Source: an uncultured Candidatus Binatia bacterium
GTDB lineage: Bacteria; Desulfobacterota; Binatia; UBA9968; JAJDTQ01
NCBI GenBank assembly: GCA_965242525.1
Contig: OZ251459.1
Span: 1,376,001 to 1,440,000 of the forward strand
DNA: 64,000 bases
Direction of reading: 5' to 3'
Shown here piece after piece: positions 17,014 to 64,000 of this stretch. The notes below the pieces were generated by a model that was given only the letters and a program-made list of their open reading frames with translations, was not told the DNA's origin and did not search any database. Numbering within the stretch: the first letter of the stretch is position 1; every line of letters begins with the position of its first letter. The position numbers and the translations under genes are program-made.

Positions 17014-17076
17014 GAGATGGTCGTTCAGCCCTGACTCTGCCCGGAACCCACCGGGTGTCCCGGAAGACCCCGCGCG

Positions 17077-42731: not shown

Positions 42732-42986
42732 TCACTTGGAGCGTCGGTCCGCGGGCTCCGGGGGTTGGCCTCCCTGCCGTCGGAGCAACGCGCGGGCCGC
42801 CTCGACGTCGGCCGAGGCCCGGCGAGTGGCGAAGAACTCCGCGGTCTTCAAGGCGGAGACCTTTTCGGCCACCGCAGTGGCCACGAACTGGTTGATGCTC
42901 GTACCCTCTTCCCGGCTGATCTCGGCCACAGCAGCCTTCAATGAAGCGGGCAGACGCAAGGGGTAGGTTCCATTCTGCTTCTTCAT
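42732..42986 (-). CDS. RHH/HicB-like antitoxin
   Basis: YPLRLPASLKAAVAEISREEGTSINQFVATAVAEKVSAL; ATGA overlap with the PIN gene. Confidence 0.85.
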   Translation of the reverse strand: MKKQNGTYPLRLPASLKAAVAEISREEGTSINQFVATAVAEKVSALKTAEFFATRRASADVEAARALLRRQGGQPPEPADRRSK

Positions 42987-43411
42987 GTCGATATCCTTTC
43001 CAATGCCCGTCGGGGCGTCAGCACCGCGAGATCGAAACGCCCGGACGCAGCGCCGAAGTCCCGTCGGTTGAAAGTCACCAACGCATCGGCACTGCCGTTG
43101 ACTGCGGTCTCGAACACCATCTCGTCCCCGGGGTCTCGAAGCTGTGGACGCCACAGAAAGCGGGGCTCCACCGGCTCGGCAACTGCGCAGAGCGCAGACA
43201 CGACCGTTTCCGCCTCCGCCTCGCTGAGGCCGGAGGCGCGTCGTTGCTGCGGAGCACAGCATACCGCTTCGTATTCCAAAGCCAACGCCACGGACAGCAA
43301 CAGCGTGAAAGTCCCGCTCAAGGCTCCGTCGAGCAGAGTGGCGGAGACTCCCGTCGGGCTACGCAAACCGGCCACGACAACGTTGGTGTCCAGGACGAAG
43401 CGCAGAAACAT
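42983..43411 (-). CDS. PIN-domain toxin
   Basis: VLDTNVVVAGLRS, LEYEAV, WRPQLRDPGDEMV.ETAVNG.AD.LVTFN.RDF. Confidence 0.9.
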   Translation of the reverse strand: MFLRFVLDTNVVVAGLRSPTGVSATLLDGALSGTFTLLLSVALALEYEAVCCAPQQRRASGLSEAEAETVVSALCAVAEPVEPRFLWRPQLRDPGDEMVFETAVNGSADALVTFNRRDFGAASGRFDLAVLTPRRALERIST

Positions 43412-43423
43412 GAAGAAATCATA

Positions 43424-46400
43424 TCATATAAGACGACCCTTAGCTACCGCAACCGTCCCTTCGACCACACCCCTTGCTTCCCGCTGTTCCTCTCGGTCCA
43501 GGATGTCCTTCAGCCTCTTGTCACCGGGCGGGGCGGGGGCGAGGAGGTTCGGGGGGTTGAACAGCGGGTTGCCCGGGGACCACAGTTCCACGCTCTCTGC
43601 GTTCTCCTCGTAATAGGCGGGGTCGGTGGTCACCCGGAGTCGTTGGGCCATGCCGGGGGCCAGCAGGCCGTATTCACGGCGGCCCAGGGGCTGCACGTCC
43701 GTGCCCGGGGGCATCAGGTCGGGGGAGGCGATGATCCGGTCCAGGTCGTCCAGGGTCACCGGCGACTGCGGCTGCGGGGGCACGGCCAGGGCGTCTTCCG
43801 TGACCGCGTCCATGTCGAACCCCCCTTCCCCGGCTTCACGGACCTGGCGGTGGATGGCCTCCACCAGGTCGGCCCGGCCCCGCTCGTCCCGGTCCGCGCC
43901 CGACAGCACCGCCTGCGAGATGGTCCGGGGCAGGCGGGCCAGGATCGGCTGCAGGCGGCCTACCACCGATTCGAACAGGCCAATGCGGTTTCGGAGCGCC
44001 CGGTGCACGTCGGTCTCCACCGTGCCTTCGTATTGCAGGTTGACGATGCGGATGGTCGGGTGCGCCTGCCCGAGACGATCGATGCGGCCGATGCGCTGCT
44101 CCACGCGCATGGGGTTCCAGGGCATGTCGTAGTTGACCAGGGCGCCGCAGAACTGGAAGTTCAGCCCCTCGGCCGCGGCGTCGGTGCACAGCAGCAGATC
44201 GACCTCGCCCTCGCGGAAACGCCGTTTGGCGTCGTCGCGGCCGATGCGCCGCCACCCGCCGTCCGCCCCGGGCAGCTCTCCGCCCCGCCCCGAAAAGCAC
44301 AGCAACCGCCAGTCCCCGCGCTCCCGCAGCGCCTCGCGCAGGAACTCCAGGGTGTCCACGTACTGGGTGAACACCATGGCCTGCCGGTAGTCCTGCTGAC
44401 GCAGGCCGGCCAGGACCTCGGTCAGGTGCGCCAGCTTGCCGTCCCGGGGCAGCGCCCGGACGCGTTCGAGCAGGCGTTCGATCTCCGTCCCTTCCTCCGC
44501 GGCCAGGGCCCGGCGCTCCAGGTCCGCCATCTCGTCCGCGTCGAGGATCTCGTCCACCGCCTCGTCGTCCGGCGCGTCCTCTTCGGTCCCGGCCGGCCGC
44601 CCTTCGCCGCCGTTCCGGATGGCGTCGAGGCGCCGTTCCAGCGTGACCCGGAGCGCCCGGAAGCTGCTCGCCAGCCGACGCCGGTAGATGGTCATCACGA
44701 ACCCCACCGCGGACCGCTCGGCCGCGGCGGCCCGGTCGTAGGTGCCGGAGATGTAGTCTTCCACCGCCCGGTAGAGATCCCTTTCCGCGGGGGTCATGGG
44801 GATGAACCGGTCCTCCACCTGCCGCCGGGCGATGGGGGTGGAGAGCAGGCCGGCCTCGAAGTAGCGGCGCAGCAGCTCCCGTGTGTGCCGGGACACCAGG
44901 CGCCGGATCGGGGTGTACGCGCGCATGACGCCCAGGGCCGCTTGGCGCTCCGCAGTCTCCAGTTGCCGGCGCGGGATGGTGGCCGCGCCCCGAAGCGCCC
45001 GGAGCACCTTGTCGGCCTTGAGCCGCGACAGTCCGGTGAGGCGCCGGACGTCCTCCCGGGCCGCCTTGCCGTAGTCGCGCTCCGCGGCCCGGAACAGCCG
45101 CGCCATGCGCTCGAACGCTTCCGGCGACGGGCTCGGGGCGTTGAGGTCGTCGAAGAACTCCAGGAAGGCCTCCGCGCTCCACTCCCGGGGCAGGCCCAGG
45201 AGGTGCAGCAGGTCCCAGACCTCCACCGGATGGACCTGCATGGGCGTGGCGGTGAGCAACAGCAGGCCCGGGGCGCGTTCCCCGAGCCGTTGCATCAGCC
45301 GGAGCAGCGCGTTGGGGCCGCCTTCGTTGGCGGCGCCGGGAGCGCGCCGGCGCGCGTGGTGGGCTTCGTCCAGCACCACCAGATCCCAGGGGCACCCGTC
45401 TTCCAGTAGCGCCTCGGCCCGTTCCCGCCGGCGCAGCAGATGGCTCGAAGCGATCACCGCGGGCTCTTCATGCCAACGCCGGGGCGCCGCCTCGCGCTCG
45501 TGGCCGCCCCGCAACGCCGGCGACGGATACCACGACAGCTTGTGGCCGTCGTAGATGGGCCAGTTCAGGTTGAACTTCTCCCGCAGCTCCGTCTGCCACT
45601 GCCCCAGCACCGCCTTGGGCGCCAGGACCAGTATGCGTTTCGCCTGCCCGGCCAGCCACGCCTGACGGAGCAGCAGCCCCGCCTGGATGGTCTTGCCGAG
45701 CCCCACCTCGTCCGCGATCAACAGCCTCGGAGGCCAGTGGTCGTAGAGGCGATGGAAGGCCCGCATCTGGTGCGGCCAGGGCGTCACCGCTGCGGTGGCC
45801 TCGCCCACTTGCGCGCCGCCGTCCGGCAGGGTGGGCGCGCGCCGGATGAAGCCCCATACCCTGCTTCGCAGGTCCGCGGGAGAGGCCGCGGGCGTCTCCG
45901 CGGACCGCTGAGACGAGGACCCCGGATCGGCCCACGGCGTCTCCCCGGTCTCCGGCGTCCCGGGCGTCTCATCCAGCACTCCCTTCAACCGCGCCGGCAA
46001 AGCGTCGTCCGCGGGCAGGAAACGCAGCAGGTCCCGCCGGGCCGCGTCCGGCACGTCGAGCACCATGAGCCGGGGGCTCCGCCCGGCCCAGATGCGCGCG
46101 AAGTTCTCGTCCTCCGCGGCCACCCGCTCCGGCTGCGGCCCCCAACTGGTGAACACGTTGATGCTCTCCCAGTTGGTGCGCCAGCCGGCCGGGGTCTCGT
46201 TCAGGCTGCCGTTCCAGGCGATGCGCTCGCCGGTGCGGTCTTCGACGACGCCGGCCTTCTCGTGGAATATGCCGTCGTCGCTCACCGGCGTTCCCTTGGC
46301 GTCGCAGGGCACCGCCACCTTCACGTCCAGGCAGCCACGGGCCACCATCCAGGCGAGCAACTCCAGGGCGCCGGAAGCCTCCGGGTCCGGCGGGGCCAGG

Positions 46401-46687
46401 GGAAGGCCGGCCAAGTGCGCCTCCACTTGCCGGCGCAACTCCTCTCCGCGCTCGATGGCCTCGACCTCGGGCCGGGCCAGGGTGCAGCCCACCAGCAGGC
46501 GCATGCGGCCGCGGTTGCGCACCAGCCCTTCGATGCCGCGCGCGGCCAGGGCAAGGGCGCCGGCGTGGAAATAGCCGGTCAGGCGGTCGTAGCGCTCGGC
46601 GTCTTCCAGCGCGGGGACGTAGAAGAGCCGCACCAGGTCGCCGTCGTCAGGCGTGTACTTGAGCTTCCATTCCCGGTCCCGAAGCAT
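43424..46687 (-). CDS. PLD-like nuclease fused to SNF2 helicase (restriction-like defence system)
   Basis: FHEKAGVVED...GSLNET PLD motif; LIADEVGLGKT, DEAHH, TATP, EGLNFQ, PWNPMRVEQRIGRIDR. Confidence 0.9.
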   Translation of the reverse strand: MLRDREWKLKYTPDDGDLVRLFYVPALEDAERYDRLTGYFHAGALALAARGIEGLVRNRGRMRLLVGCTLARPEVEAIERGEELRRQVEAHLAGLPLAPPDPEASGALELLAWMVARGCLDVKVAVPCDAKGTPVSDDGIFHEKAGVVEDRTGERIAWNGSLNETPAGWRTNWESINVFTSWGPQPERVAAEDENFARIWAGRSPRLMVLDVPDAARRDLLRFLPADDALPARLKGVLDETPGTPETGETPWADPGSSSQRSAETPAASPADLRSRVWGFIRRAPTLPDGGAQVGEATAAVTPWPHQMRAFHRLYDHWPPRLLIADEVGLGKTIQAGLLLRQAWLAGQAKRILVLAPKAVLGQWQTELREKFNLNWPIYDGHKLSWYPSPALRGGHEREAAPRRWHEEPAVIASSHLLRRRERAEALLEDGCPWDLVVLDEAHHARRRAPGAANEGGPNALLRLMQRLGERAPGLLLLTATPMQVHPVEVWDLLHLLGLPREWSAEAFLEFFDDLNAPSPSPEAFERMARLFRAAERDYGKAAREDVRRLTGLSRLKADKVLRALRGAATIPRRQLETAERQAALGVMRAYTPIRRLVSRHTRELLRRYFEAGLLSTPIARRQVEDRFIPMTPAERDLYRAVEDYISGTYDRAAAAERSAVGFVMTIYRRRLASSFRALRVTLERRLDAIRNGGEGRPAGTEEDAPDDEAVDEILDADEMADLERRALAAEEGTEIERLLERVRALPRDGKLAHLTEVLAGLRQQDYRQAMVFTQYVDTLEFLREALRERGDWRLLCFSGRGGELPGADGGWRRIGRDDAKRRFREGEVDLLLCTDAAAEGLNFQFCGALVNYDMPWNPMRVEQRIGRIDRLGQAHPTIRIVNLQYEGTVETDVHRALRNRIGLFESVVGRLQPILARLPRTISQAVLSGADRDERGRADLVEAIHRQVREAGEGGFDMDAVTEDALAVPPQPQSPVTLDDLDRIIASPDLMPPGTDVQPLGRREYGLLAPGMAQRLRVTTDPAYYEENAESVELWSPGNPLFNPPNLLAPAPPGDKRLKDILDREEQREARGVVEGTVAVAKGRLI

Positions 46688-46690
46688 GGT

Positions 46691-49600
46691 TCAGCCGTCC
46701 TGGTCCTGCCACAGCCGCAACTGCTCGGGCTCGTCGATGCGGTCGCCGTAAGCGAGTCGGGATAGGTGGTAGAGGGTCTCGAAGTCGCTGCCCGAGGCCG
46801 CGGCCTCGCCCGGGAGGTCGATCCCGGTGAAGGCCCGTGAAACGGGAAGCACCTCCAACACCGCCTCCAGGGAAGCGAAGAAACGCGGGTCCCGGTCCAC
46901 TTGGGCCGCGGCCAGCATCCCGCGCGCCGCGTCCAGGGACCGGAGCCGGGCCAGGTTGGCGGCGTGGTGGATGGCGTCGATCATGCCGCGGGAGCCGTCC
47001 GCGGGACCCAGGGCGCCCTTGGCGGCCCGCCGGGCGCTGTCCCAGAGGCGGACCATGCTGCCCTTCTTCTCGGCGAGCCGGCCCACGACCTCCCCGTCCA
47101 GATCGACGCCCACCGCGCGGGCGAGCTTGAGCGCTTCGTCGTAGGAGAACGCGGGCGCACGGAAGGCGTGCCAGGACAGGACGAAGAAAGAGGTCGCGGG
47201 GTCGAGGTCGGCGTTGGCCTTGAGACGGGTCAGTCGTTCCAGGAGCCAGCGCTTGACCTCGCGCCGGGCTGCGTCCAGCGCGTCCTCCGGCGTTGCCGCG
47301 TAGGGGTCCCATTCCTCCTCGAACAACACCTGCTGGCGCCGACCCCGGCGCTCCGCGGGAAGCTCCCGCGGCGTGCCCCGCTTGAGGGGCCAGTGGCGCG
47401 AGAACTCCTCCAGCGCCGGCCCGAAGGAGGCCAGGTAGAGATCGACCCCGGTAATGCCCGCGTCCTGGAACTCGCCCACCCGCCGGCGCACCGCCTGCGC
47501 CACACGGGGCTCCACGTCCTCCCAGTACAGGTTCGGCTCGTCCCGCACCAGGAAGCTCTGGGTTCGTTCCACCGCCCGCGGACGGCAAACCAGGAAGATG
47601 GTGCTGTTGGCCGCGGCCTTGTCCTTGATGTGGAGGCTCCCCTCGGCCTCGGTGTTGACGGGCCACGAGGCGGTGATAGTGAAGCCCGACTCGATCAGCC
47701 CCTTGGTGAGCGCGTCCCAGGCCCCGGTGGCCTTGTGGGTGAACATGAGGGTCATGATCCCGTCCGGCTTCAGCACCCGGCGGCACTCCGCGAAAATAGC
47801 CGCCATCCGCTCCCGGTATTCCTGCCCGGCAAGCGCCCGCGCCCCCTTCTCTCCCCGGAACTTGGCCGGGTTGGCCACCGCCTCGTTCTCCTTGTCCGTG
47901 AGCTGCCGGCGGAACAGTTCGGGAAAGACGTGCCCCGCGGTGCGCTTGAGCCACACGTAGAAGAAGTCCGACAACTCCGCGTACATCACGTTGTCGTAGT
48001 AGGGCGGGTCCATGACCACCACGTCGATGGAGGCATCCATGAGATGGTCCAGGCTGTCGCCCGGCTTGCAGGTGATGGTGATCGGGGGTGGGTCGGAGGA
48101 GGGGGATCTGCTGTCGTCGTGGTCGATGAGGGCGGAGGGGCTGGTGTGGTGGCCGTGGCTGATGGGGGCGGAGGGGCTGGTACGGTGGCCGTGGCTGATG
48201 GGGGCGGGATGGCTGGTGCGGGCGGCGTGACTGGTGGAATCATTTTCTCTGGTGGGGTCAGGGCCGTCAATAGGGTTGGCGCGGCTGCTGCGAACGTCGC
48301 GGCCGGTAGAGTCGGGACGGCTGGCGCGGGCGGCGTAGCTAGTGGGGTTGCTGTGTTCGATGTGGTCGGCGTGATCGATGGGATCCGTGTGTTCGGTGCG
48401 CTTGGCGCTGGCTGCGCGGCCGGTGCTGTCGATGCCGTCGGTCTGGCCATTGTGCCCGGTCCGGCCGGTGTGGTTGATCCCGGCGAACAGATCGCCATCG
48501 CGGGCCGGGGCGTCGGGGCGGACGAGGGCGACGAGTTCGGCGATGCACTTGGCGGTCTGCCCGATGGCCCAGTCATAGCCGAGACCGGTGACCAAAGGGG
48601 CCATCTCGGCGTAGGACCACTTGAAGGAGAAGTCATGCCGGTCGAAGGTGTTGACCATGACCTCCCGATTCACGTGCCACCGGGTCATACGGGAGTTGTA
48701 ATCGCGTAGCTTGTCGAAGGACAGCGCGAGATACCCGTAAGCCGCCTTCTGGATCTCGCCCAACCGGCCCGCGGCCCGGTCGGCGTCGAGCATCTCCCGG
48801 AAGACCTCTACGCTCGTGCCGTGGCAGAGAAGCTGGCGAGGCGAGAACAGGTCGCGCCATTTCTTTACACCGTAGATTTTTGATCGGTCGCTATACATGT
48901 CGTCATAGTTTTCACTCGGCACGAAATCGAAGGCTTCCCACTCCGGCAGCCTCTCTTCGAGTCGCACTCGGACCTCGGCGCCGTTGTCGTCCTCGGGCCG
49001 CGGCGCCCGGTAGCCGCGGACCCACTTCTCGCGGATCCGCCCCGTCTTGGTCCTGACTTCGACCAGCTTCTTATAGACGACAGCGTAAAGCTGCTCTCCC
49101 ATCCTCCCGGCTTGCGCCTGTTCCTTGATCACGTCCCCGTCGATGATCCGCCCGCAATCCGGGTAGGGACAGTCGCCCGTCCCGTCCGAGACCGTGCCCG
49201 GCGATTGCTCCGCCACGGAATCCACCATGTCGAACGCGCACGTGCGGCTCTCCGATCCGGGACCGCCGCGGAGATGCGGCACGAGCCTGACCCCCGCGCC
49301 GCCCGGCGCCAGCCGCCAATTGGGAGAGAGCGGAACGAGCCCGTCGCAGTACGGGCAGGTGATGGTGCGCGCCCAGAGATAACCGTCCGGGCGGGTATGG
49401 TCCCCGGGCTCCTCCGGGAACACGCCGGCAAGACGTTCCCGGACCGTGCTCGTCAACCGGTTACCGAGTTCTTCCACGACGCTCTTCAGGGAAACGCCGA
49501 ATCCTGCAGGCCATTCGACCGTTGCGCGTTCGATCAAGGCAGCGACGGGATTCAGGTCGTTCGCCACGGTCTGCAACCCTGCCCGAACGGACTCGAACGG

Positions 49601-50008
49601 CACGCTCCCGCCGCCCGCCGTCGGATCGAGAACGACGGCATTGCTCACCGTGTTCTCGCGTAACCAATCCCTGTGATCATCGTCGGGTATGTAGCCGAAA
49701 GCCCGCGGGTAACCATACGCATCCGCACCCAGGCGTTCCCCCGTGCGGTTGGCCGCGGATATCCTCCTCTTCGCGGCCACAGGGTCGCCGTGAATCCCGA
49801 TCACGTGCAGGAACCGCTCCCGGTCCGCGTCCGCCGGCAGCAGGGACCCCAGCACCGCGGCCCGCGACGCCACCAGCGGACGCCGCGCCCACCAGACGTG
49901 CAGCCGGTTCGGCGCCGGGAACGGCGTCATCGGCGTCCGCTCGCGAATGCTCTCGATGCCAAGCGCCGCAATCGGCAACCACCGCTCGATCAGGCGGACG
50001 TCAGACAC
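46691..50008 (-). CDS. DUF1156-family adenine DNA methyltransferase
   Basis: LHVWWARRPLVASRA, DPTAGGGS (SAM binding), DPPYY (catalytic), YLWARTITCPYC; GTG start inferred; carries a low-complexity insert. Confidence 0.9.
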   Translation of the reverse strand: MSDVRLIERWLPIAALGIESIRERTPMTPFPAPNRLHVWWARRPLVASRAAVLGSLLPADADRERFLHVIGIHGDPVAAKRRISAANRTGERLGADAYGYPRAFGYIPDDDHRDWLRENTVSNAVVLDPTAGGGSVPFESVRAGLQTVANDLNPVAALIERATVEWPAGFGVSLKSVVEELGNRLTSTVRERLAGVFPEEPGDHTRPDGYLWARTITCPYCDGLVPLSPNWRLAPGGAGVRLVPHLRGGPGSESRTCAFDMVDSVAEQSPGTVSDGTGDCPYPDCGRIIDGDVIKEQAQAGRMGEQLYAVVYKKLVEVRTKTGRIREKWVRGYRAPRPEDDNGAEVRVRLEERLPEWEAFDFVPSENYDDMYSDRSKIYGVKKWRDLFSPRQLLCHGTSVEVFREMLDADRAAGRLGEIQKAAYGYLALSFDKLRDYNSRMTRWHVNREVMVNTFDRHDFSFKWSYAEMAPLVTGLGYDWAIGQTAKCIAELVALVRPDAPARDGDLFAGINHTGRTGHNGQTDGIDSTGRAASAKRTEHTDPIDHADHIEHSNPTSYAARASRPDSTGRDVRSSRANPIDGPDPTRENDSTSHAARTSHPAPISHGHRTSPSAPISHGHHTSPSALIDHDDSRSPSSDPPPITITCKPGDSLDHLMDASIDVVVMDPPYYDNVMYAELSDFFYVWLKRTAGHVFPELFRRQLTDKENEAVANPAKFRGEKGARALAGQEYRERMAAIFAECRRVLKPDGIMTLMFTHKATGAWDALTKGLIESGFTITASWPVNTEAEGSLHIKDKAAANSTIFLVCRPRAVERTQSFLVRDEPNLYWEDVEPRVAQAVRRRVGEFQDAGITGVDLYLASFGPALEEFSRHWPLKRGTPRELPAERRGRRQQVLFEEEWDPYAATPEDALDAARREVKRWLLERLTRLKANADLDPATSFFVLSWHAFRAPAFSYDEALKLARAVGVDLDGEVVGRLAEKKGSMVRLWDSARRAAKGALGPADGSRGMIDAIHHAANLARLRSLDAARGMLAAAQVDRDPRFFASLEAVLEVLPVSRAFTGIDLPGEAAASGSDFETLYHLSRLAYGDRIDEPEQLRLWQDQDG

Positions 50009-50012
50009 CGGC

Positions 50013-52190: not shown

Positions 52191-52252
52191 CACCACTCCA
52201 TAAGTTGAGTATCATGGCTGCCTCCCCGCGGCTCTGGTCATCGCTGCACCGT

Positions 52253-53224: not shown

Positions 53225-53225
53225 T

Positions 53226-55455: not shown

Positions 55456-55459
55456 GGTT

Positions 55460-56995
55460 TCAGTTACCTCCGGACGCAGCCTTCCTGTTGCCACGCACGC
55501 CCTCGATGCCAAAGGCTCGATCTTCTCTCAGCTTCGCCAGATTCTGCCGGACGTCCCGGGCGACTTCTTCGACCTCCCGCGCAACCCTGGTCTCAACTCC
55601 GAGCTCCCGTTCCAGCGCCGTCGTAAGGGGCAACAGAAAGCCCGCCGCGGGTGAAGCCTGGATCAGTTCCCGCATCCGCGCCGGCCCCAGGTCAATGCTG
55701 AACTCCATCAAGGCGACCAGGCATTCCCTTGAGGGCGAACTGATCTTGGGCAGGACTTCAAGCATTGCCTCGACGTCCTGCTCACAAGCAAGCGAAGTCC
55801 CGCTTGCGCCGACGTTCCTCATCTCAGGCGGCGAGTAGTACGACGCCATGAAGCGGATCAGGGTTTCGATCAGGCGATCCGGCCTACGTTTGTACCGCAA
55901 CAGGTAGTAGATATTGTACAGGCGCTCGGTCAGGTAGTACTGCTTGCGCCGGGCGGTACCGCCCGCCACCTGAACGACGCCCCGCTCGATGAGGCGGGCG
56001 AGGTGAGCGCTGCACTTGCTCGTCTCCACCCGGGACCTGTCCGCGATTTCCTTTGTGGTTGCCGGCCTCCATAGCTCTGCGAGCGCGAGATAGACCCGCC
56101 GTTCCTGGGCTGGGAGCGAGTCGATGTGGCTCTTGAAGTACTCCGTGTGGTCGTCCACCAAGTCGAGCAGGGCGTCCATGAGCTTGCGAAAAGACAACTC
56201 CCCACCGAAGCGGGCCACGATGGCGAGCAGGCGCGGGCTGCCGCCGGTGAGGATTTCCAGCGAACGAATCGTGTCGTGCGGACGGGGCTGGCCGGACACT
56301 TTTTCCCACAGGACGGCGCATTCGTCCGTATCGAGAGGGCGCAGGGTGAGGATCCGAAAGAGGTCGTACAGGGCGCGGTCCGGACGGTCTATCTCGTCGA
56401 AGCGGCTGGTGGCGCTGGCCAGCAGGATGATCCGGGGCTCGGTCTGGAGGGTCTTGCGCAGCCGCCATCCCGCTTCGGAGTCCGCCATATCCCCGAACAT
56501 CATGTTCAGGTTCTCCACGATCAGCACAAGCCGCTTGCCCTCTCGATCCGAGAAGTCCAGCAAGGAACCGAGGCAGCGCTCGGCAAGGATCTGGTCGTCA
56601 TGAATGGTGCGGAAATCTTCGAAGGTGCGGTGCAGGTCGGGACCATCCTCTTGGCGAGGCGCCTCGTCTGCCAGATGGGACAGGCATTCCAACCAGAACT
56701 CCCCCGCGGTGGCTACCTCGTAGCTTTCCTCTGCAAAGACGATGGGGAAGAAGCCAGACGACAGCGCAGCGTCCCGGCGCACCTCCGCGGCCACCCGCAG
56801 GAGCAGGCTGGTCTTGCCGCTCCCGCGCGGGCCGATCACGATCTGATGCGGGTTCGAGCTTCCGGTGCACTCGCGCAGCGTCTCGACCATGGAGTCGAAC
56901 TCGGCCGTCCGCACGCAGAAGGAAGCTACCAACTCGTCATCGCTGAAGAACCCCGGGTTGTACTTCCGTACCTTCGGGGGGGCGGTCACAGTCAT
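55460..56995 (-). CDS. STAND-like AAA+ ATPase with winged-helix domain
   Basis: KYNPGF, GPRGSGKTS, LIVENL, LTGGSPRL, wHTH segment (TTKEIADRSRVETSKCSAHLARLIERGVV); ATGA overlap with the upstream ATPase. Confidence 0.8.
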   Translation of the reverse strand: MTVTAPPKVRKYNPGFFSDDELVASFCVRTAEFDSMVETLRECTGSSNPHQIVIGPRGSGKTSLLLRVAAEVRRDAALSSGFFPIVFAEESYEVATAGEFWLECLSHLADEAPRQEDGPDLHRTFEDFRTIHDDQILAERCLGSLLDFSDREGKRLVLIVENLNMMFGDMADSEAGWRLRKTLQTEPRIILLASATSRFDEIDRPDRALYDLFRILTLRPLDTDECAVLWEKVSGQPRPHDTIRSLEILTGGSPRLLAIVARFGGELSFRKLMDALLDLVDDHTEYFKSHIDSLPAQERRVYLALAELWRPATTKEIADRSRVETSKCSAHLARLIERGVVQVAGGTARRKQYYLTERLYNIYYLLRYKRRPDRLIETLIRFMASYYSPPEMRNVGASGTSLACEQDVEAMLEVLPKISSPSRECLVALMEFSIDLGPARMRELIQASPAAGFLLPLTTALERELGVETRVAREVEEVARDVRQNLAKLREDRAFGIEGVRGNRKAASGGN

Positions 56996-58353
56996 CGTTT
57001 GGCGCTCCGGGCAGATCCAGCCCCGGGCGAGGCGGAAGAAGCGCCGGATCGGCCGTACCGGACGCGCCACCAGTCTTCGAGTAGCCCCGACACGAAGCGG
57101 TAGCCGTCACCTTGCTTGGCCAGATACCCGTCGTGCTCCAGCACGTGGAGCACGTCTTCGATCAAGGGCGGGTCGGCCATGGTCTCGCCTGCAAGAGACT
57201 CGCTCTGCCTGACTTCACGGTCCAGGCCGCGGCGAACCTCACGTCGAACCCTGGCCTCGTCCGCAAGAGATTCGCCATACCGTCGGATGGCGTCGCTTGG
57301 CAGCCGACCGCGGTTGTTTGCAGCCTCGGTCAACATCTCCAGGGCGACCCGATACCCATCAACCCCGAGGACCATCCTCAATCGATCCTCGTAGTGCGGC
57401 AGGTCCGTCTGTCCCCGGATACCGAGCATCTCCCGGTCATAGACGCGCCCTACGTCTTCAAGGGAGGCGGCGCGCCGACCGGCCCGGCGCAGGTCCTCGT
57501 GAAGGACATCGAAGAACCTCTGCACGTGGTGGGGAACCTGACACCGAAGTCGCCGGCACATCTCCTGGCGGACGTCGAGGGGGAGGTCGATACGGTAGGT
57601 CTCCCCCAGAGCGCCGAGGCAGGCCATGGCGGTCTCCCTGTCCCAGGGCTTCAGGTCGAAAGGGGTGAAGATGTTCGCGTGGGCGCTGAGTCCGGCCTGT
57701 TGCAGGATGGGTTCGAGGCTCACGCTGCCGGAGAGGATCATGCAGACCCGGCCCTGATGCGCCTGGCCGTTCTTGCGAAGCCAACTCAGGAACTCATCCG
57801 CGGCCCGCCGACGCTCCGGCGTGATGCGGTAGTCGTCCCCCTTGAGCAACCGGTTGACGAGGATCGGCAGTTCGTCGATGGCGAGCGTCACCGGCCTTTC
57901 GTTCCCCGCCAGAGCCGCGAAGACCTCGTCGCCCTTCTGCCGCCAGTTGCCGGCATCGACCCCGGCGCGCAGCTTCATCCGCAAGTCTGCGCCAGCCAGT
58001 ACAGGAACTTGGCCGCCGACTTCGACCTCTGCCGGAAGGACATTGGCGAACAGGTCCCTGATCCGCTTCCAGGCGCCTTGCATCGTCCTCGACTGGAACC
58101 CGATCTCGGTGATGGCGTCTGCGGGGGTGGAGGCCCCCTCCAGATCAACGAAGACTGACTCGAAACTCCCCTCTTCCTTCAGCCGGCGCAACAGTTCCCG
58201 AACGAGGCTCGTCTTGCCCATGCGCCGTTGCGCAGTCAGCAGGGTATGGGCTCCGTCCCGAACCCGCTCCACAAGAGCCTCGATCTCGGCCTCTCGGTCG
58301 AAGAAGCGATCCCCTTCGACCCAGTTGCCGCCCGCCTTCCTGAGCGCCGCCAT
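56992..58353 (-). CDS. STAND-like/archaeal-type AAA+ ATPase
   Basis: GNWVEGDRFFDRE.E, AQRRMGKTS, LAIDELP, ILSGS, C-terminal L..LEHDGYL....YRF.SGLL.DWW. Confidence 0.8.
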   Translation of the reverse strand: MAALRKAGGNWVEGDRFFDREAEIEALVERVRDGAHTLLTAQRRMGKTSLVRELLRRLKEEGSFESVFVDLEGASTPADAITEIGFQSRTMQGAWKRIRDLFANVLPAEVEVGGQVPVLAGADLRMKLRAGVDAGNWRQKGDEVFAALAGNERPVTLAIDELPILVNRLLKGDDYRITPERRRAADEFLSWLRKNGQAHQGRVCMILSGSVSLEPILQQAGLSAHANIFTPFDLKPWDRETAMACLGALGETYRIDLPLDVRQEMCRRLRCQVPHHVQRFFDVLHEDLRRAGRRAASLEDVGRVYDREMLGIRGQTDLPHYEDRLRMVLGVDGYRVALEMLTEAANNRGRLPSDAIRRYGESLADEARVRREVRRGLDREVRQSESLAGETMADPPLIEDVLHVLEHDGYLAKQGDGYRFVSGLLEDWWRVRYGRSGASSASPGAGSARSAKR

Positions 58354-58371
58354 GGTATTCCCATCAACCTC

Positions 58372-58409
58372 GTTGGCAATCGCACTGTTGGCAACGATAT
58401 TGTTGGCAA
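58372..58409. promoter_or_regulatory. Three GTTGGCAA direct repeats at 15-bp period (putative operator)
   Basis: Exact copies at 58372-58379, 58387-58394 and 58402-58409, starting 19 bp upstream of the ATPase start. Confidence 0.6.
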
Positions 58410-58471
58410 ACAATCCGGGCGATGTCAACCACCCCGGAAGACCAACTCGGTCAACGACTGTCCGACGCCAC

Positions 58472-59230
58472 TCAGATCCATGCCTGGGGACGTTCCTCGA
58501 GGACGCGCTCGCTTGCGGAGCCGAAGTAGCTTCGGTTCGTGGTAAAGAACCTGGGCAAACGTCCGTTCTTCGGCAGAAGCTCCCCACGAGCCGCCTCTTC
58601 CATCACGGTAAGGTCCTCGGCGAAATCCTCCCACCCATCGCTGAGCGCTCTCCAGTGTCTTTCCCGGGCGTCTCGCAAACGTCTGACGTTCAACCCCAGG
58701 AATTCGATGGTGCGTTGCACACGATAGGCGGACACGCCGACAGCTTCACACGCCGGTACATCGGCTTCCATCCTCCCATTGACAATGACTCGGGTAAGTG
58801 AAGGGAGCGCGGGCAGGGTTCGGGGGTCGATGAGGTCATCGTTCACCTGACCGCCCTTCTTCTGGCCGCAACTCTGATGGCGTCGCACCGGTTCACGATA
58901 CCGAGTTTCATCGGCCAACCGGTTGCTGCCATATGCGCCTTCCGTCCCGCCCTTGCAGCAGGCGATCATGTTGGTGACGTCCAGCGCCCTCAGTGCCCCC
59001 ACCGGGTCGCTTCGGGGAACCCAATGCTCGACCTGACGATCCAACTCGGTGAGGTCGATCTCACAGTACCCGCAAAGACCGTGCTGAAGGTCGGTCAGTC
59101 CGTCCAGCAGCTCTTTATGGGAACCCCCTGCATCGTGGGAACGGAATTCCCCCCATTCCGGGTCGCGCACATGATCGAGGTAATCCCTGAGCCCCGGAGC
59201 AGGCTCATGCAAGGCTCGGATGCGTTTCAT
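58472..59230 (-). CDS. ptuB: HNH endonuclease, Septu PtuB / TIGR02646-like (copy 1)
   Basis: QHGLCGYCE, VEHWVPRS, NMIACCKGG, SCGQKK, TIEFLGLN. Confidence 0.8.
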   Translation of the reverse strand: MKRIRALHEPAPGLRDYLDHVRDPEWGEFRSHDAGGSHKELLDGLTDLQHGLCGYCEIDLTELDRQVEHWVPRSDPVGALRALDVTNMIACCKGGTEGAYGSNRLADETRYREPVRRHQSCGQKKGGQVNDDLIDPRTLPALPSLTRVIVNGRMEADVPACEAVGVSAYRVQRTIEFLGLNVRRLRDARERHWRALSDGWEDFAEDLTVMEEAARGELLPKNGRLPRFFTTNRSYFGSASERVLEERPQAWI

Positions 59231-60504
59231 CTCGATTTTCCCATGCGGGCCAGCAATGAACGCCGTCTTATTTCGACGTCCGCCCGGTCGAGGGCATGGT
59301 CGCGGGGCGAAAGGTTCTCCAACTCCCTCCTGAGCGTCAGGGCTTCTTCCGATTCGCCTTCGTCGTCGCTGACGAGCCGCATGTACCGTTCCAGGGTTTT
59401 CGTGAATTCGTTGCCGGACGGACGCTGGTCCGTCCCCATCACCGAGGAGAGGACCACGCCCGCTTCTGCGCCATAGGTTGCCGAGGCAGGGGAACCGGCG
59501 ACGACACGGCCATCCTCTTCACGGACCAGCTCCACGATACGTTCCGGCTTGACCGTGGTCAGTACCTGCGGGCTGTGGGTGGAGACGATGAACTGTGCGT
59601 TCGGGAACGTCCGGGTGAGGTCGTCCAGTATCCGCTGCTGCCAGGAAGGATGCAGGTGCAGATCGACTTCGTCGATGAGAACCACCGCCTCGGATTCGAG
59701 AGGGTTGTCGAGATGTGGATTCCCTTGCGCCATCCGCCAAGCCAGGTCGGCCGCGAGGGCAAGCACCGCGCGATAGCCTCCGCTCAACTGGTCGAGAGCC
59801 AGTTTCTCGCTCTTCCGTCCCGTTCTCACGGACACCACGAACCGAGGCGGGTCCATCTCTATATGGGGTTCAGATACGTCGTCGAGCATGGAGGAGATCG
59901 CACGACGGAGGTTGGACAACTCGTCGAGCTGGTAACCGAAGTCACGCCGCTCCCTCTGTTCTCTCAACTCCTCGTTTTCCTTGAAATAGAACCACTCGAA
60001 CAACCCCTGGAAGTTCGTGCGTGACGAAAGCGCCCCCTTGAAGGCGTCGTATCGGTTCAGGTCCTTCCTGAAATCGGACCACCGCTCCGTCTGATCGAAG
60101 ATGACACGGTCGGTGTCGTAGAAGGCAACGATGGGAAACTCGACCCGCCGCCCAGCCTCGTGATCGCTGACGATTTCATCCGTTCTGTCTTTCAAGGCGC
60201 TGGTGTATTCTCGTTGCGCCGGTTGTCCTTTGGCTACGGTTCCGGACCAGGAAATACCTTCGACCGTGGTGAGGGCGACGTGTAAATCCGACGCGCCCAC
60301 ACGCAAATCGGTATCGAGAAGACCTCTCTCGGAGACGTTGGCAAACAGGTGGGGAATGGCGCCGAGCCCGGCTGCGACCGCGCCCAGAACGCTCGTCTTC
60401 CCGTGTGCGTTGGCGCCATGCAGAACCGTGAGCCGCGGGTCGAGCGTCAAGGCGAGCTTATCGACCGCACGGAAGTTCTCGATCTCCACCGATGCCAGCT
60501 TCAT
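59227..60504 (-). CDS. ptuA: ABC/AAA_21 ATPase, Septu PtuA-like (copy 1)
   Basis: GANAHGKTS, QLSGGYR, RMAQGNP, IDEVDLHLHPSWQ, STHSPQV. Confidence 0.85.
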   Translation of the reverse strand: MKLASVEIENFRAVDKLALTLDPRLTVLHGANAHGKTSVLGAVAAGLGAIPHLFANVSERGLLDTDLRVGASDLHVALTTVEGISWSGTVAKGQPAQREYTSALKDRTDEIVSDHEAGRRVEFPIVAFYDTDRVIFDQTERWSDFRKDLNRYDAFKGALSSRTNFQGLFEWFYFKENEELREQRERRDFGYQLDELSNLRRAISSMLDDVSEPHIEMDPPRFVVSVRTGRKSEKLALDQLSGGYRAVLALAADLAWRMAQGNPHLDNPLESEAVVLIDEVDLHLHPSWQQRILDDLTRTFPNAQFIVSTHSPQVLTTVKPERIVELVREEDGRVVAGSPASATYGAEAGVVLSSVMGTDQRPSGNEFTKTLERYMRLVSDDEGESEEALTLRRELENLSPRDHALDRADVEIRRRSLLARMGKSR

Positions 60505-60531
60505 GGTCCCGACCCTTTCCCCTGGCCGAGT

Positions 60532-60726
60532 TCACTTTCCGAGACGACCGAGTTTGTTCAGGAGATGGTAGGACATGTCCTGGACCGTCACGTGGCAGGG
60601 ATTGAACGACCTGTCGCCGCAGCCCTCGGACTTGGCGGATACCGATGCCACGTTCTGGAAGGCGATGACGCAAAGCGCCAGCGCGATGACCGTCAACACG
60701 ACCTTGCTGTAGAGATCCAGTTTCAT
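60532..60726 (-). CDS. Small exported or membrane-anchored protein (64 aa)
   Basis: GGAGGAGG RBS; MKLDLYSKVVLTVIALALCVIAFQ hydrophobic leader; Cys pair CGDRSFNPC. Confidence 0.6.
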   Translation of the reverse strand: MKLDLYSKVVLTVIALALCVIAFQNVASVSAKSEGCGDRSFNPCHVTVQDMSYHLLNKLGRLGK

Positions 60727-60847
60727 GGTTGCCTCCTCCATATGGGGTTTCTCCTGTTCATAAGGAGAAATTCACGGGAATGACGGGAGTGGGTCGGAAC
60801 GACAGAAGAAGAGGACCATCGGTGGAACCACCGGGATCGACGCACCT

Positions 60848-61342
60848 TCATGCGAAGCCCCCCCTCCTCCGCGGCTCCGTCAGCAGGAAGCGCAGCGCGG
60901 TGAGCACCCGGCGGGGGTTCTTGCGGTGCATGGCCATGCCGAGCCAGTAGGCGGCCTCTTCGCGTCCCATGGCTTCGATGCCTTCGGCCACCGACCGCAT
61001 GTTGTCGCGGCTTCGCATGGGAGCAAGCGTGCGGAACAGCAACCCCAGCGTCAACGCCAGATCCTCGTCCAGGGCGTAGCCCCGTTTCCGGGCGTCCGCA
61101 TCCAGGCCGAGCCTGACGCCGGACTGCGCCAGCCGTTTCAGCAACCGGTGCTCCACCAGTTCGAGGTTGCGGCCCCGAAGCCCGGCCACGCGCGCCGCGG
61201 AGGTCACCTGCGGCGTGGCGGCCGCGGGCATCCGCCAGACCTCGTATTCCGCGTCCGCGGGACCGTGGCGGCGCACCCGCAACTCGTACCGGGGGGCCGA
61301 TTCCGGCGTGTCGATCTGGGCGATCCTCTCCAACCGCGCCAT
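60848..61342 (-). CDS. Small conserved protein of the DUF499/DUF1156 system (occupies the DUF3780 position)
   Basis: Abuts the DUF499 stop; EDLALTLGLLFRTLAPM and MGREEAAYWLGMA motifs. Confidence 0.7.
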   Translation of the reverse strand: MARLERIAQIDTPESAPRYELRVRRHGPADAEYEVWRMPAAATPQVTSAARVAGLRGRNLELVEHRLLKRLAQSGVRLGLDADARKRGYALDEDLALTLGLLFRTLAPMRSRDNMRSVAEGIEAMGREEAAYWLGMAMHRKNPRRVLTALRFLLTEPRRRGGFA

Positions 61343-64000
61343 CTATGCCTTCGCTTCCGCGGTGGCCGACACGTAGGCGGCGCCGCTGGCGAACCGCGCC
61401 AACCGCTGGGTCATCTTCTCCGGGGCGTCGCCCTGCATGGGCAGTCCCTCGGCGAAGGTCAACTCGAAACCCACTTCCATGGTCTGGGAGGCGGCGTCGC
61501 GAAGCTGGGCTTCGAGGAACTCCCGCACCGGCTGGGCGTCCGACACCGGCCCCCGGAACTCCAACTGGAACGAGCCGCGGTCACGGGTTTCGTACCCGCC
61601 GACGAGGGTCACCAGCTTGTCCGCGCCGGAAACGGCGCCCACCGCTCCCATCAGCCGAAAGGCGTCCCCGGCCTCGAACAGACGGATGGCGAGGACCGCG
61701 ACCTTCTCGATCTTCCGGGCGCGGGCCTGTTCCCAGAGCTTGGCCAAGGCTTCCTCGAGCAGGCCTTCGGCCGACAGGACGCCGGGAGGCGGTTCTTCCA
61801 CCCTGCCAGCGCCGTCCCCCGGAAGAGTCACATACGTTGTTTCCCTTTCCCGGTCCGTGTCCTTTCCGGCAGGGTCGGCGGCAGGCCGGCGGGGCGTCTC
61901 CGGTTCCGGCCGCGGCCAGATCCCCTTCTCCACCGCATAAGCCATGGTGAAGACCATGGACTGCTCATCCACGGCGATGGTGGGCAACGGGTCGCCGGGA
62001 CCGCACAGCAGGTCGCCGCGCTGATAGACGTATTCCCCCCGCTCGATGCCGCGCAGGATGCCGCGGATGAAGATATCGTCGCCCACCAGGATGGGCAGCG
62101 CCGGGTCCCGGCGGAACTCGTCGCGCAACGCGAGGGTCGTGATCTGCCCCTTGCGGAGCGGCGTGCGGTCGCGCACGTACGCGGGAGAGTCCGGCTCGTC
62201 CTCGGCAAGGCGGAGTTTCGACAGGTCCCGGAGGGCGCGCACGACTTGCCGTTGTCCCGAGCCGGGGCGGTCCGAGGTCGATTGCACGTCGATGGCCGAG
62301 TGCGCCAGATCGACGTTGCTCGCGCCGATGCGGTTCCGCGACGGGTAGAAGACGTGGCGGTAGCACTGCTGGACGGCCAGGGCCAACTCCTGCTCGGAAC
62401 GGGCTTCCAGTTCGCGGATCTTGTCCTGCTGGTACTCCGCGAGGTCCACCAGCCGCTCGGGCTTCTTCAGGTCCTGCAACGCCAGCCGCCGCTGGGACTT
62501 GCGCCGCATCTCCTCCTTGCGGGCGTCGTCCGCGGCCAGGAACACCAGGTTGTTGCGCAGCGTCCGCAGCGCAGAGCCTTCCGAACCCTTGCGGGAGTGG
62601 ATGCGTTCGATCAACTCGGGAACGCTCTCCACCGCGCTGCCGATGGCCACGCCGTCGTAGGCGAGCACCACCAGCCTGGGGCGGCCGTCGCCCACCTCGT
62701 CGGGGGCGTCGAAGGGGCCGCCCGGGAACGTTACGGCCTCGAAGGCGCCGCCCGCGCCGCCGCCGAAGATGCCGCGGATGCAGTCGTCCAGGTGGGCGCG
62801 GGTCTCGCCGGCGTCCACGTGCTGTTCCTGGCGCCGGATGATCTGGCTCAGGTTGGCTTCGGCGAGGAAGCGCATGGGCGCGCCGGGCCGGTCGTCGAGG
62901 TAGGCGGATTCCGCGACGAACTTCCGGCGCGCCTCCTCCACGAAGCTCAGGTCCAGGCCCGGGGCCAGCATGGAGTAGCGCAACTGGTGGGGAGACAGGC
63001 CCTTGAGGGGGTCGTTGAACGCGAGGGTGTGCATGAAGATCGTGCGCGCCACGTATGCGGCGTAGGGCGGCAGGCCCCGGTGGTGCTCGACGTCCATCTC
63101 CTCGGCCAGCGCCCTCTTGTCCGCGCCCGCCACGTCGTTGGCCATGGCCGGCAGGTATGCGGTCTGGCCGAGACGGGTGACGATCTCTTGCCGGATGGGC
63201 TCGTGGCCCGGGTCCATGTGGTGGAGATGGATCGCCGCGGCGTCCGCGGGCCGCTGCCGCCACAGGTGGGCGATGGTGCGGGCCAGCAGCCGCAGCATCC
63301 CGCGCACGCGCTGGAAGTTGCCCAGGGTTGCGGTCTTGGCCGTCAGGGTTCCCAGCACCTCGGGATGCAGCGGGTAGCTCCAGCGGAACGCCTCGGTGGT
63401 CTCGGGGCGCCCGGCGTCGCCGGACAGCGCCTCGCCGCCGGCGCTCCAAATCTCGCGGTACGCTGCGACGACCGAAGCGGCCCGGGAATCGTCGATGGCT
63501 TCGAACAGGCGCCGGCGCAGCACCTGCGCGGTCTCGTCCTCTTCCGTGGGGTTGAGCAGCGTGGCCTTGCGCGCGGAGACGCTCTCGGCTTCGGCCAGGC
63601 GGTCGGCGATGAACTGGTTCTCCGCACCGTAGGCATCCCCGGCGCGTCCGTCCTTGCCGATGGCCAGGGTATAGACGAGAGTCGCGTTGGGCGCTCCCTC
63701 CACCGCCTTGAACAGCGAGGTCAGGAACGCGGTCAACTGGTCGTGGGCGCCGTCGAACCGGCGCACCTTGCGCAGATACACCGAGAGCTCGTCGAGCAGG
63801 ACCAGGGTGGGTTCGCCCCCGAAGAGCTCCCGCAGGGTTTCGGCGCCCGGCGCCGCCCGATGCTCGTCGCTGGCGCGGACCCGTTCGTACCCTTCCCGCC
63901 CGGCGAGGGCGTAAGCGATCTCTCCCCAGGGCGTGCACGCCAGCACGCCATCGCCCATGGCCCGCCCGTTGGCGGGGTCCGCGTTCTCGCCGTCGAAGGC
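61343..64000 (-). CDS. DUF499-family AAA+ ATPase, 5' end outside the window
   Basis: TPWGEIAYAL, APG, PTLVLLDEL, VLRRRLFE, YPLHPE, FQRVRGMLRLLA, RNNLVFLAAD; frame open to the window edge. Confidence 0.9.
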   Translation of the reverse strand, partial: AFDGENADPANGRAMGDGVLACTPWGEIAYALAGREGYERVRASDEHRAAPGAETLRELFGGEPTLVLLDELSVYLRKVRRFDGAHDQLTAFLTSLFKAVEGAPNATLVYTLAIGKDGRAGDAYGAENQFIADRLAEAESVSARKATLLNPTEEDETAQVLRRRLFEAIDDSRAASVVAAYREIWSAGGEALSGDAGRPETTEAFRWSYPLHPEVLGTLTAKTATLGNFQRVRGMLRLLARTIAHLWRQRPADAAAIHLHHMDPGHEPIRQEIVTRLGQTAYLPAMANDVAGADKRALAEEMDVEHHRGLPPYAAYVARTIFMHTLAFNDPLKGLSPHQLRYSMLAPGLDLSFVEEARRKFVAESAYLDDRPGAPMRFLAEANLSQIIRRQEQHVDAGETRAHLDDCIRGIFGGGAGGAFEAVTFPGGPFDAPDEVGDGRPRLVVLAYDGVAIGSAVESVPELIERIHSRKGSEGSALRTLRNNLVFLAADDARKEEMRRKSQRRLALQDLKKPERLVDLAEYQQDKIRELEARSEQELALAVQQCYRHVFYPSRNRIGASNVDLAHSAIDVQSTSDRPGSGQRQVVRALRDLSKLRLAEDEPDSPAYVRDRTPLRKGQITTLALRDEFRRDPALPILVGDDIFIRGILRGIERGEYVYQRGDLLCGPGDPLPTIAVDEQSMVFTMAYAVEKGIWPRPEPETPRRPAADPAGKDTDRERETTYVTLPGDGAGRVEEPPPGVLSAEGLLEEALAKLWEQARARKIEKVAVLAIRLFEAGDAFRLMGAVGAVSGADKLVTLVGGYETRDRGSFQLEFRGPVSDAQPVREFLEAQLRDAASQTMEVGFELTFAEGLPMQGDAPEKMTQRLARFASGAAYVSATAEAKA

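Follow-up and report, generated by a model that had tools for sequence, protein, structure and literature searches.

How does a restriction-like anti-phage locus come to hold several further defence systems between two of its own genes, and do these passengers form one machine with their host or travel as separate units? The question is raised by positions 42732-64000 of the window, which is the whole stretch of 64,000 nucleotides (nt) analysed here, taken from an uncultured Candidatus Binatia bacterium (contig OZ251459.1 of assembly GCA_965242525.1); coordinates given below are positions of this stretch unless they carry the handle of another locus. The region holds the core of an Hma system and, nested within it, a Septu system, a pair of AAA+ ATPase genes called ATP1 and ATP2, a Menshen system and a second Septu system. 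The explanation that we consider probable is that the core belongs to a DUF7680 branch of Hma, that the four nested modules are independent, and that the stack arose by recombination between Hma loci and is now eroding. The idea of a landing pad for nested defence is supported by this locus but is already published and in use, and what is new is a core of a DUF7680 branch, a stack of this depth, a scar that offers a clue to how the stack was built, and an unnamed two-gene AAA+ module with a conserved predicted operator.

The 17 open reading frames (ORFs) of the region, taken from an ORF listing and then scanned against Pfam and PADLOC, form an uninterrupted gene array on the minus strand only, with intergenic gaps of -17 to +237 nt, and their order agrees with the one proposed in a preliminary description of this DNA. 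The array opens with HmaC (61343-64000), a DUF499 AAA+ ATPase of which 885 codons lie in the window and the 5' 126 codons past its end, as seen in the stretch L121; it matches Pfam DUF499 (PF04465, 3.7e-34) and scores 3.7e-63 against the PADLOC HmaC model, compared with 3.6e-26 against the DUF499 model. Gene 2 (60848-61342), which abuts the HmaC stop codon, encodes a DUF7680 protein of 164 amino acids. On the far side of the cargo stands HmaB (46691-50008, 1105 amino acids), a predicted N6-adenine methylase with Pfam DUF1156 (PF06634, 5.3e-15), a weak N6_N4_Mtase match and a PADLOC HmaB match of 1.1e-68, whose GTG start lies 4 nt beyond the stop codon of the second PtuB gene. HmaA (43424-46687, 1087 amino acids) combines an SNF2 helicase with an N-terminal PLD/HKD nuclease; Pfam reports SNF2-rel_dom (2e-18), Helicase_C (4.8e-19) and, below its cut-off, PLDc_2 (2.6e-5), and PADLOC reports BrxHI (7.8e-82), PLD_Helicase (3.3e-64), PbeA (6e-64, covering the N-terminal 445 residues) and HmaA (8.4e-57). 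The starts of the longest ORFs are too long for some genes, and comparison with relatives places the start of HmaB at the GTG at 50008, that of ATP1 near 58347, that of ATP2 at 56992 and that of the RHH gene at 42986.

A DUF499 ATPase, a DUF1156 methylase and an SNF2 helicase fused to a nuclease are the membership features of Hma systems, renamed DUF499-centred BREX-related (BR) systems in a 2026 Nucleic Acids Research article (PMC12839542), and all three are present here. In the part of that article used for comparison, Type-2 BR systems have an HKD-helicase and, in 98% of taxa, a standalone DUF3780 gene. The window core resembles this type in its DUF499 ATPase, its DUF1156 N6-methylase, its Swi2/Snf2 helicase with an N-terminal HKD/PLD nuclease and its one small standalone core gene. 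However, the small gene is not DUF3780, as the preliminary description had supposed when it assigned the core to the four-gene DUF3780 architecture, and that assignment has to be given up: gene 2 is a DUF7680 protein by Pfam (PF24728, 9.8e-45), it has no match in PADLOC or NCBIfam, no standalone DUF3780 gene occurs in the core, and a comparison of DUF7680 and DUF3780 profiles (hhalign, 10 against 7 proteins) gives a probability of 0.5%, a value from a shallow DUF7680 alignment (Neff 1.4) that is compatible with very remote homology. DUF7680 is not mentioned in any paper searched, and gene 2 is 73-94% identical across the Hma loci of relatives. The NCBIfam anti-phage models also score far below their equivalog cut-offs (DUF499_antiphage 145 against 1200 bits, DUF1156 215 against 1000, phospholipD_antiphage 353 against 1100), so that the core is a divergent relative of any tested system. 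By its predicted proteins the core falls within Hma/BR in the broad sense and represents a DUF7680 branch with a Type-2-like PLD/HKD-SNF2 helicase.

A genuine DUF3780-type DUF499 system does occur in the same genome, about 1.16 Mb away (L122, G000:C1:2588000-2607999; G000 denotes the genome of the window, other G handles other genomes and L handles individual loci). It too carries embedded genes, with a pair of a FitA-like RHH gene and a PIN-DUF3775 gene separating DUF3780 from the DUF1156 methylase, and a 213-amino-acid ORF without assignment plus a RelA_SpoT-domain protein separating the methylase from the PLD-SNF2 helicase; upstream there are genes for a YhcG-type nuclease and two subtilases. 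The HmaB protein of the window is a mosaic relative to its congeners, with 55-71% identity in the N-terminal half and 78-92% in the C-terminal part, and a stretch of about 80 residues (about 603-682 of the long ORF), which cannot be aligned with that of G023, may be a target-recognition insert.

The cargo measures 10,835-10,839 nt (10.84 kb) from the DUF7680 stop to the HmaB start. Next to DUF7680 lies a small ORF (60532-60741) of 64-69 amino acids, with a second ATG at 60726 preceded by GGAGG; its hydrophobic N-terminal segment suggests an exported product, it has no family match in Pfam, PADLOC or NCBIfam, and among relatives it is kept only in G023, at 85%. Septu, that is, a PtuA ABC ATPase gene followed by a PtuB HNH nuclease gene, is recognized twice by PADLOC profiles covered over their full length, first as PtuA-1 (59227-60504, 7.3e-115) and PtuB-1 (58472-59230, 2.3e-55), which overlap by 4 nt, and again as PtuA-2 (50747-52015, 1.7e-121) and PtuB-2 (50013 to about 50750, 2.7e-53). 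Since PtuA is 59% and PtuB 52% identical between them, the two systems do not stem from a recent duplication. Septu-1 is followed by a promoter-like element (58352-58428), by ATP1 (56992-58347), an ORC/Cdc6-like AAA+ ATPase of about 451 amino acids with a C-terminal winged helix (Pfam AAA_22, AAA_16 and ATPase_2, all below cut-off), and by ATP2 (55460-56992), which in Pfam terms is a STAND-like protein of about 510 amino acids with AAA_16, a TrmB-type winged helix and a helical C-terminal domain. Menshen (52253-55512) is complete, with NsnA (DUF262/GmrSD_N, 1.1e-109), NsnB (ABC ATPase with DUF3696, 1.6e-102) and NsnC (9.8e-109) in one operon whose genes overlap or abut. A 168-nt scar (52023-52190) separates it from Septu-2. 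Both Septu copies and Menshen had been named as cargo beforehand, and the PADLOC matches uphold them.

The cargo is also less rich in guanine plus cytosine (GC) than its surroundings, as had been judged by eye, with a GC fraction of 0.618 against 0.700 in the four Hma core genes and 0.680 in positions 1-42000. Likewise, it is free of the miniature inverted-repeat transposable elements (MITEs) of the left part, the families D1, D3 and D6 being confined to about 8.0-31.0 kb with no copy in 42.7-64 kb. The MITE-like repeat in question has the core AGCGCGTCCTTCGACTTCGCT..CTCAGGACGAACGGGG and occurs in both orientations in 8000-31010, with 6, 9 and 4 copies listed for D1, D3 and D6, respectively, some of them overlapping.

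The slot between gene 2 and the methylase had been proposed as a variable hotspot, and relatives bear this out. Of 27 further genomes in the genus, 10 have a match to the family PF24728, against none of 33 from the remaining genera of the order; 13 stretches were fetched, the window proteins were mapped onto them, ORFs were called, and 20 unassigned ORFs were scanned. Nine loci, that of the window included, have a full DUF7680 gene and HmaB, and all nine carry about 3.4-11.5 kb of cargo, in eight compositions and between DUF7680 and HmaB only. The window itself (G000) has the small ORF, Septu-1, the AAA+ pair, Menshen, the scar and Septu-2. G023 has the small ORF, a broken ATP1, a short ATP2, Menshen, PtuA and then an inverted IetA-IetS; G009 has a C-terminal fragment of ATP2 and Menshen; G007 has the AAA+ pair; G021 and G025 have a HigBA-like toxin-antitoxin pair on the opposite strand and a long ATP2 without ATP1; G005 has a solitary NsnA, a remnant of DUF7680 and a three-gene cassette without a name; G020 has a ParE-type toxin-antitoxin pair, Septu and the AAA+ pair; and G002 has Menshen, with a separate unit of remnant, Septu and AAA+ pair upstream of HmaC. 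G012, which lacks Hma, retains a remnant of DUF7680 and Septu beside the same oxidoreductase gene as the one next to the window array. From locus to locus the flanking core genes are orthologues that share 68-94% of their amino acids, so that neither an invariant cargo nor non-orthologous flanks, the two outcomes named in advance as speaking against a hotspot, was encountered. The window thus shows what defines embedded defence, namely genes enclosed by core genes and oriented like them, in a slot that is filled in each of the nine genus loci.

The IetA-IetS genes of G023 (L020:11842-15478, PADLOC 4.3e-148 and 2.7e-290) take the place that PtuB-2 has in the window and are read from the other strand, one of the rarer inverted insertions, and HmaB of G021 is interrupted by an insertion sequence-type transposase gene with DUF772 and DDE_Tnp_1 domains (L023:9952-11031). 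The three-gene cassette, with proteins of about 237, 200 and 370 amino acids, is known from three genomes of the genus (L024:11602-13998, L030:1397-3797, L032:10075-12463), in each of which it is preceded by a remnant or pseudogene of DUF7680; its last protein has a metallo-beta-lactamase (MBL) fold with weak LmuA, RT-associated MBL and 6A-MBL matches only, the other two are without a family in Pfam, PADLOC or NCBIfam, and the cassette may be another embedded candidate. Two gammaproteobacterial loci have even larger stacks in the same slot: L036 has about 14.6 kb between DUF7680 and HmaB, and L034 has Septu-1, the AAA+ pair, an inverted second AAA+ pair and then Septu-2.

Such cargo had been expected to be a source of new systems, which is right but already in print as 'guilt-by-embedding' in the preprint of Payne, Hughes, Fineran and Jackson (bioRxiv 10.1101/2024.01.29.577857). 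According to the sections of the preprint compared here, embedded genes occur in 931 of 1485 Hma systems and Septu is common between hma genes; 22.8% of the embedded genes belong to known systems and 96.7% have the orientation of the host system; and the preprint counts 434 embedded families and 17 shortlisted candidates; nine 'Hma-embedded candidates' were tested, seven of them protecting against phage. The window locus is like these systems in its core of helicase, methylase and DUF499 ATPase, for all three of which PADLOC Hma models give matches, in the same-orientation defence genes nested in it, and in Septu as a passenger. In contrast, its slot holds ten genes and a pseudogene in four modules, against a published count that was capped at three embedded genes for any two adjacent hma genes (legend of Figure 1B in the preprint). 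Moreover, core-gene remnants at the borders of cassettes point to recombination between Hma loci, whereas for the origin of embedding the same sections of the preprint offer only the idea of a 'genomic sink'.

These remnants bear directly on how the stack arose. At the protein level the scar shares 63% identity with residues 107-162 of the full DUF7680 copy (tblastn E 4.6e-13), and at the DNA level 74% with 60858-61020 over 163 nt (repeat family D5); it is what is left, at the 3' end, of a second and diverged DUF7680 gene. It reads directly into the PtuA-2 start codon, and because a DUF7680 3' end abuts PtuA-2 in this way, Septu-2 would once have been preceded by a DUF7680 gene of its own. Further remnants of DUF7680 precede the AAA+ pair, the three-gene cassette or Septu at the loci of G002, G005 and G012 that correspond to the window region, and also in L031, L051, L052, L054 and L087; their 5' ends vary from about residue 86 to 131, and one has a stop codon. 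L030 and L032 have full-length but frameshifted DUF7680 copies, and in L041 a 5' remnant of HmaB (residues 53-96 of the long ORF, 80% identity) lies in the cargo upstream of the AAA+ pair.

Comparison with G023, the nearest sampled species, adds steps in nucleotide identity along the locus: 91% from HmaC to the small ORF, 86-88% in ATP2 and Menshen, 79-80% in PtuA-2 and the HmaB 5' half (79% in the latter), and again 91% in the HmaB 3' half and HmaA. The first 20 or so nt of the scar are kept in G023 and followed by a deletion of about 135 nt, so that the junction of NsnC, scar and PtuA-2 is partly preserved; Septu-1 (60500-58437), 984 nt of ATP1 and PtuB-2 are missing. The shared scar junction together with these deletions shows a stack that is older than the split between the two species and that is now decaying, a process in which the window ATP2 has lost its TPR array. 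Assembled contigs of four sequencing runs placed on 44001-64000 are short (listed lengths 249-2003 nt), mixed with relatives at 90-95% and have joint sides of 20-50 nt; one contig of 963 nt (run X6) spans the NsnC-scar-PtuA-2 junction with 25 differences.

In the proposed history, the four modules would be independent systems riding in the operon-like array of the core and not parts of one machine, and the stack would be the product of recombination between Hma loci that carried different cargo. Conserved hma genes would serve as homologous anchors at one end and the other end would be joined illegitimately, which would leave a truncated DUF7680 3' end ahead of Septu-2. Several points weigh against this history. 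The recombination mechanism is drawn from one scar and the identity steps, and two tandem Hma loci with internal deletions would leave an identical scar. The tight spacing, single strand and lack of a terminator excess also fit co-transcription of core and cargo. The 80 loci of the AAA+ pair discussed below were collected with ATP1 as bait and are not an unbiased sample of Hma, the core is as divergent from tested systems as described above, and a defence activity of core and modules is predicted from family membership. A candidate HmaB 5' remnant, about 26 nt after the PtuB-1 stop that resembled the HmaB start by eye, was rejected, its alignment score of 13.0 lying next to a shuffled mean of 13.3, with 1074 of 2000 shuffles scoring at least as high.

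The tandem arrangement just mentioned is the alternative that survives best. Two full Septu-bearing Hma systems would have stood side by side in a defence island, with the AAA+ pair and Menshen between them, and deletions would have taken HmaB and HmaA of the first locus and HmaC and the 5' part of DUF7680 of the second, nesting being a by-product of decay and not of insertion. The 5'-truncated DUF7680 of the scar and the frequent deletions in G023 suit such a collapse, as do G002, in which a decayed unit of DUF7680 remnant, Septu and AAA+ pair lies directly upstream of an intact Hma locus, and G012, in which remnant and Septu stand at the same neighbour gene without any Hma. Nevertheless, we hold a collapse to be unlikely, because no remnant of HmaB or HmaA was detected after PtuB-1, the same slot is filled in all nine genus loci, most of them without a remnant, and in loci of other phyla, too, the AAA+ pair has DUF7680 or Septu directly on one side and HmaB on the other.

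A different alternative accepts the nesting and concerns its function. The preliminary description had suggested a layered or guard-type defence, possibly co-transcribed. In such a model, cargo and Hma core would share their transcripts and be coupled in function, and, for example, the ABC ATPases of Septu and Menshen would fire once a phage disables the restriction core, as PrrC does in EcoprrI. The 17 genes on one strand with their short gaps would allow this, and so would terminator-like sites, of which 9 are found in the array against 13.1 expected, that is, without any excess; Septu is also the commonest Hma passenger, and Payne et al. discuss guard-type backup as a possibility, citing PrrC/EcoprrI and BrxU/BREX in the sections compared. 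The likeness to PrrC in EcoprrI and BrxU in BREX lies in a second defence gene within a restriction-like operon; functional coupling is shown for those two, whereas the window is known from its genes. Against such wiring, the cargo differs in nearly every congener around a constant core, the modules decay independently of each other, only 0.7% of Septu systems are embedded in Hma according to the same parts of the preprint, and the AAA+ pair has its own predicted promoter and operator and mostly occurs without Hma. Since the pair has this element of its own and 65 of its 80 loci show no Hma core gene in the DNA fetched for them, the evidence argues that the cargo modules are autonomous and not parts of one layered machine, with which their independent turnover also agrees, and we regard the guard model as improbable, somewhat more so than the tandem collapse. 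Lastly, an integron-like site, with a dedicated recombinase inserting free cassettes at a specific sequence at the DUF7680-HmaB junction, would account for cargo always in the same slot and orientation and for the DUF7680 remnants of four loci that start within residues 100-110, but it is very improbable given that Pfam finds no integrase, transposase or recombinase family among the 17 window ORFs, that a repeat search of the locus brings up no long direct repeats other than the PtuA paralogues and the diverged 3' ends of DUF7680, and that remnant starts are scattered over the whole range given above.

Independence of the modules is best followed in the AAA+ pair. A database search with ATP1 gave at least 1956 relatives at E <= 0.001 among 8000 candidates scored, and a scan of one genome per species with ATP1 as bait gave 242 relatives, from which 80 loci were kept; these span Proteobacteria, Latescibacterota, Acidobacteriota, Chloroflexota, Gemmatimonadota, Binatia and others. 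An ATP2 homologue directly follows ATP1 in 79 of the 80 loci, the exception being L085, in which ATP1 itself is split, and in the window the ATP1 stop and the ATP2 start overlap by 1 nt. ATP1 homologues have 410-453 amino acids, with invariant Walker A GKT and Walker B DE. ATP2 relatives range from 481 to 1571 amino acids, those of 700-1570 carrying TPR arrays. In them, AAA_16 and a TrmB-type winged helix are joined by TPR units in widely differing number and by a C-terminal part of about 100 amino acids that is conserved, the spread of lengths in L033-L112 being due mainly to the number of TPR units. In an alignment, the TPR array is cleanly missing, in frame, from the ATP2 proteins of the window, G023 and L096, with the Walker motifs kept; the L096 protein has 544 amino acids, and L069 (578 amino acids) adds another form without or nearly without TPR. 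The window ATP2 may be read as a pseudogene; its frame is intact, its Walker motifs are kept and a similar short form occurs in L096. The window copy of the pair may be a crippled or altered variant.

Neither protein has a name in PADLOC v2.0.0 or NCBIfam, where the only match is a weak P-loop match to mad8, and a protein atlas places them only in generic 'ATP-binding' and 'TPR' clusters. A literature search found no description of the pair, its one return on such proteins being a paper on bacterial NACHT proteins, the full candidate family lists of Payne et al. lying outside that comparison. Predicted structures have moderate confidence (pLDDT 66.8 for ATP1 and 64.9 for ATP2), and fold matches were used for the AAA+ and winged-helix part alone. 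The ATP1 model is most similar to 2qen, 2fna and Orc1/Cdc6, with archaeal PF01637 ATPases and Avs3 also among the matches; the ATP2 model resembles Orc1/Cdc6, archaeal PF01637 ATPases and apoptosome-type STAND proteins, with Apaf-1/Dark and CED-4 among its matches, and the NB-ARC domain of NRC1 is among the modelled fold matches of the pair. A complex prediction for ATP1 with ATP2 has a median score of 0.47, one control reaching 0.57. No effector domain (nuclease, protease, Sir2 and the like) was recognized by Pfam, PADLOC or NCBIfam in ATP1, ATP2 or a relative of 1241 amino acids. The pair can be classed, from its domains and gene order, as a conserved two-gene ORC/Cdc6-like STAND module. Compared with Avs and other STAND or ORC/Cdc6-like defence proteins, the likeness lies in ATP2 relatives with an AAA_16 NTPase, a winged helix and a long variable TPR array; unlike them, the window ATP2 lacks a repeat sensor, no fused effector domain is recognized, and the module comprises two genes, with a second ORC/Cdc6-like ATPase and a triple-repeat operator.

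This operator is part of a conserved layout upstream of ATP1. In most of the 80 loci, across many phyla, a TTGACA is followed by three direct repeats of about GTTGSCAAC set 15 nt apart, and an exact TTGCCAA or TTGGCAA is present in 56 of the 80 upstream regions. The window has three exact copies of TTGCCAAC at 58402, 58387 and 58372, with exact 15-nt spacing, and four copies overall against 1.34 expected. TTGACA and the triple repeat are the predicted promoter and operator of the pair itself. By eye, the repeats are expanded into arrays in the 130 nt upstream of ATP1 in L087 (about six 15-nt units) and L089 (about seven), which suggests that operator repeat number varies.

Within the DNA fetched for each locus, an Hma core gene is present in 15 of the 80 pair loci, 12 of them having both HmaC and HmaB. 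Fourteen non-Hma loci were picked for a scan of their context, in which 110 of 123 flanking ORFs, those of 13 loci, were covered, L082 being dropped for its size. The pair lies beside type III restriction-modification (R-M) genes in L037 and L044, and in L072 (Gemmatimonadota, 3286-18297) it lies inside a type I R-M locus, with genes for a restriction endonuclease (REase) and a specificity subunit and AbiEii/AbiEi upstream, and a HEC-09-like gene, a methylase gene and PDC-S18 downstream. In L067 it is near PD-T4-4, PDC-S09 and mad3-like genes; the flanks of L058, L060, L063 and L100 give weaker or ambiguous PADLOC matches only, and those of L043, L050, L073, L078 and L092 give none at E <= 1e-10. 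By the published logic of embedding, the pair is a good defence candidate with its own predicted regulation.

A bolder combined proposal, to which we give somewhat less than even credence, is that ATP1-ATP2 is an undescribed, widespread and self-regulated two-gene anti-phage system and, separately, that stacks of embedded defences come about through illegitimate recombination anchored by homology, the conserved genes of the host system acting as landing arms, as truncated core-gene remnants at cassette borders suggest. One of the two ORC/Cdc6-like proteins would carry a TPR sensor array of rapidly varying length, the winged helices of ATP1 and ATP2 would bind the triple, 15-nt-spaced operator of the TTGCCAAC type and so control expression, and the pair would pass from phylum to phylum within Hma loci, within a type I R-M locus and beside type III R-M loci.

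As a whole, the window locus mainly confirms a known embedding idea in a little-studied uncultured lineage. With ten genes in four modules, the stack of the window exceeds the published three-gene count, so that deep stacks of this kind, those of L034 and L036 among them, may be under-counted. Core-gene remnants at module borders suggest a possible route, open to testing, by which cargo is taken up and piled into stacks, and the AAA+ pair is a concrete candidate, well delimited by the relatives of a single scan, with a ready-made regulatory element and natural TPR-less variants for comparison.

Downstream of HmaA and outside the Hma core lies a predicted toxin-antitoxin-like pair formed by a PIN_3 toxin gene (42983-43411; Pfam PIN_3 8.4e-21, NCBIfam TIGR00305) and a gene for an RHH-type partner of 84 amino acids (42732-42986; Pfam HicB 8e-4 and YlcI_YnfO_N 3.1e-5, both below cut-off). 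The two are joined by an ATGA overlap, and they have the layout of a type II system, a PIN toxin with an adjacent small DNA-binding partner, the latter only weakly matched. The fetched congener loci give no match of at least 45 bits to either protein, and G023 has both genes as pieces only. After the array follows a molybdopterin oxidoreductase gene (39289-42576), which by Pfam has no relation to defence. Just past the right end of the window, upstream of HmaC, L121:590-4370 encodes a protein with ATPase_2 and DUF234 domains, an MFS transporter and an NYN-domain protein.

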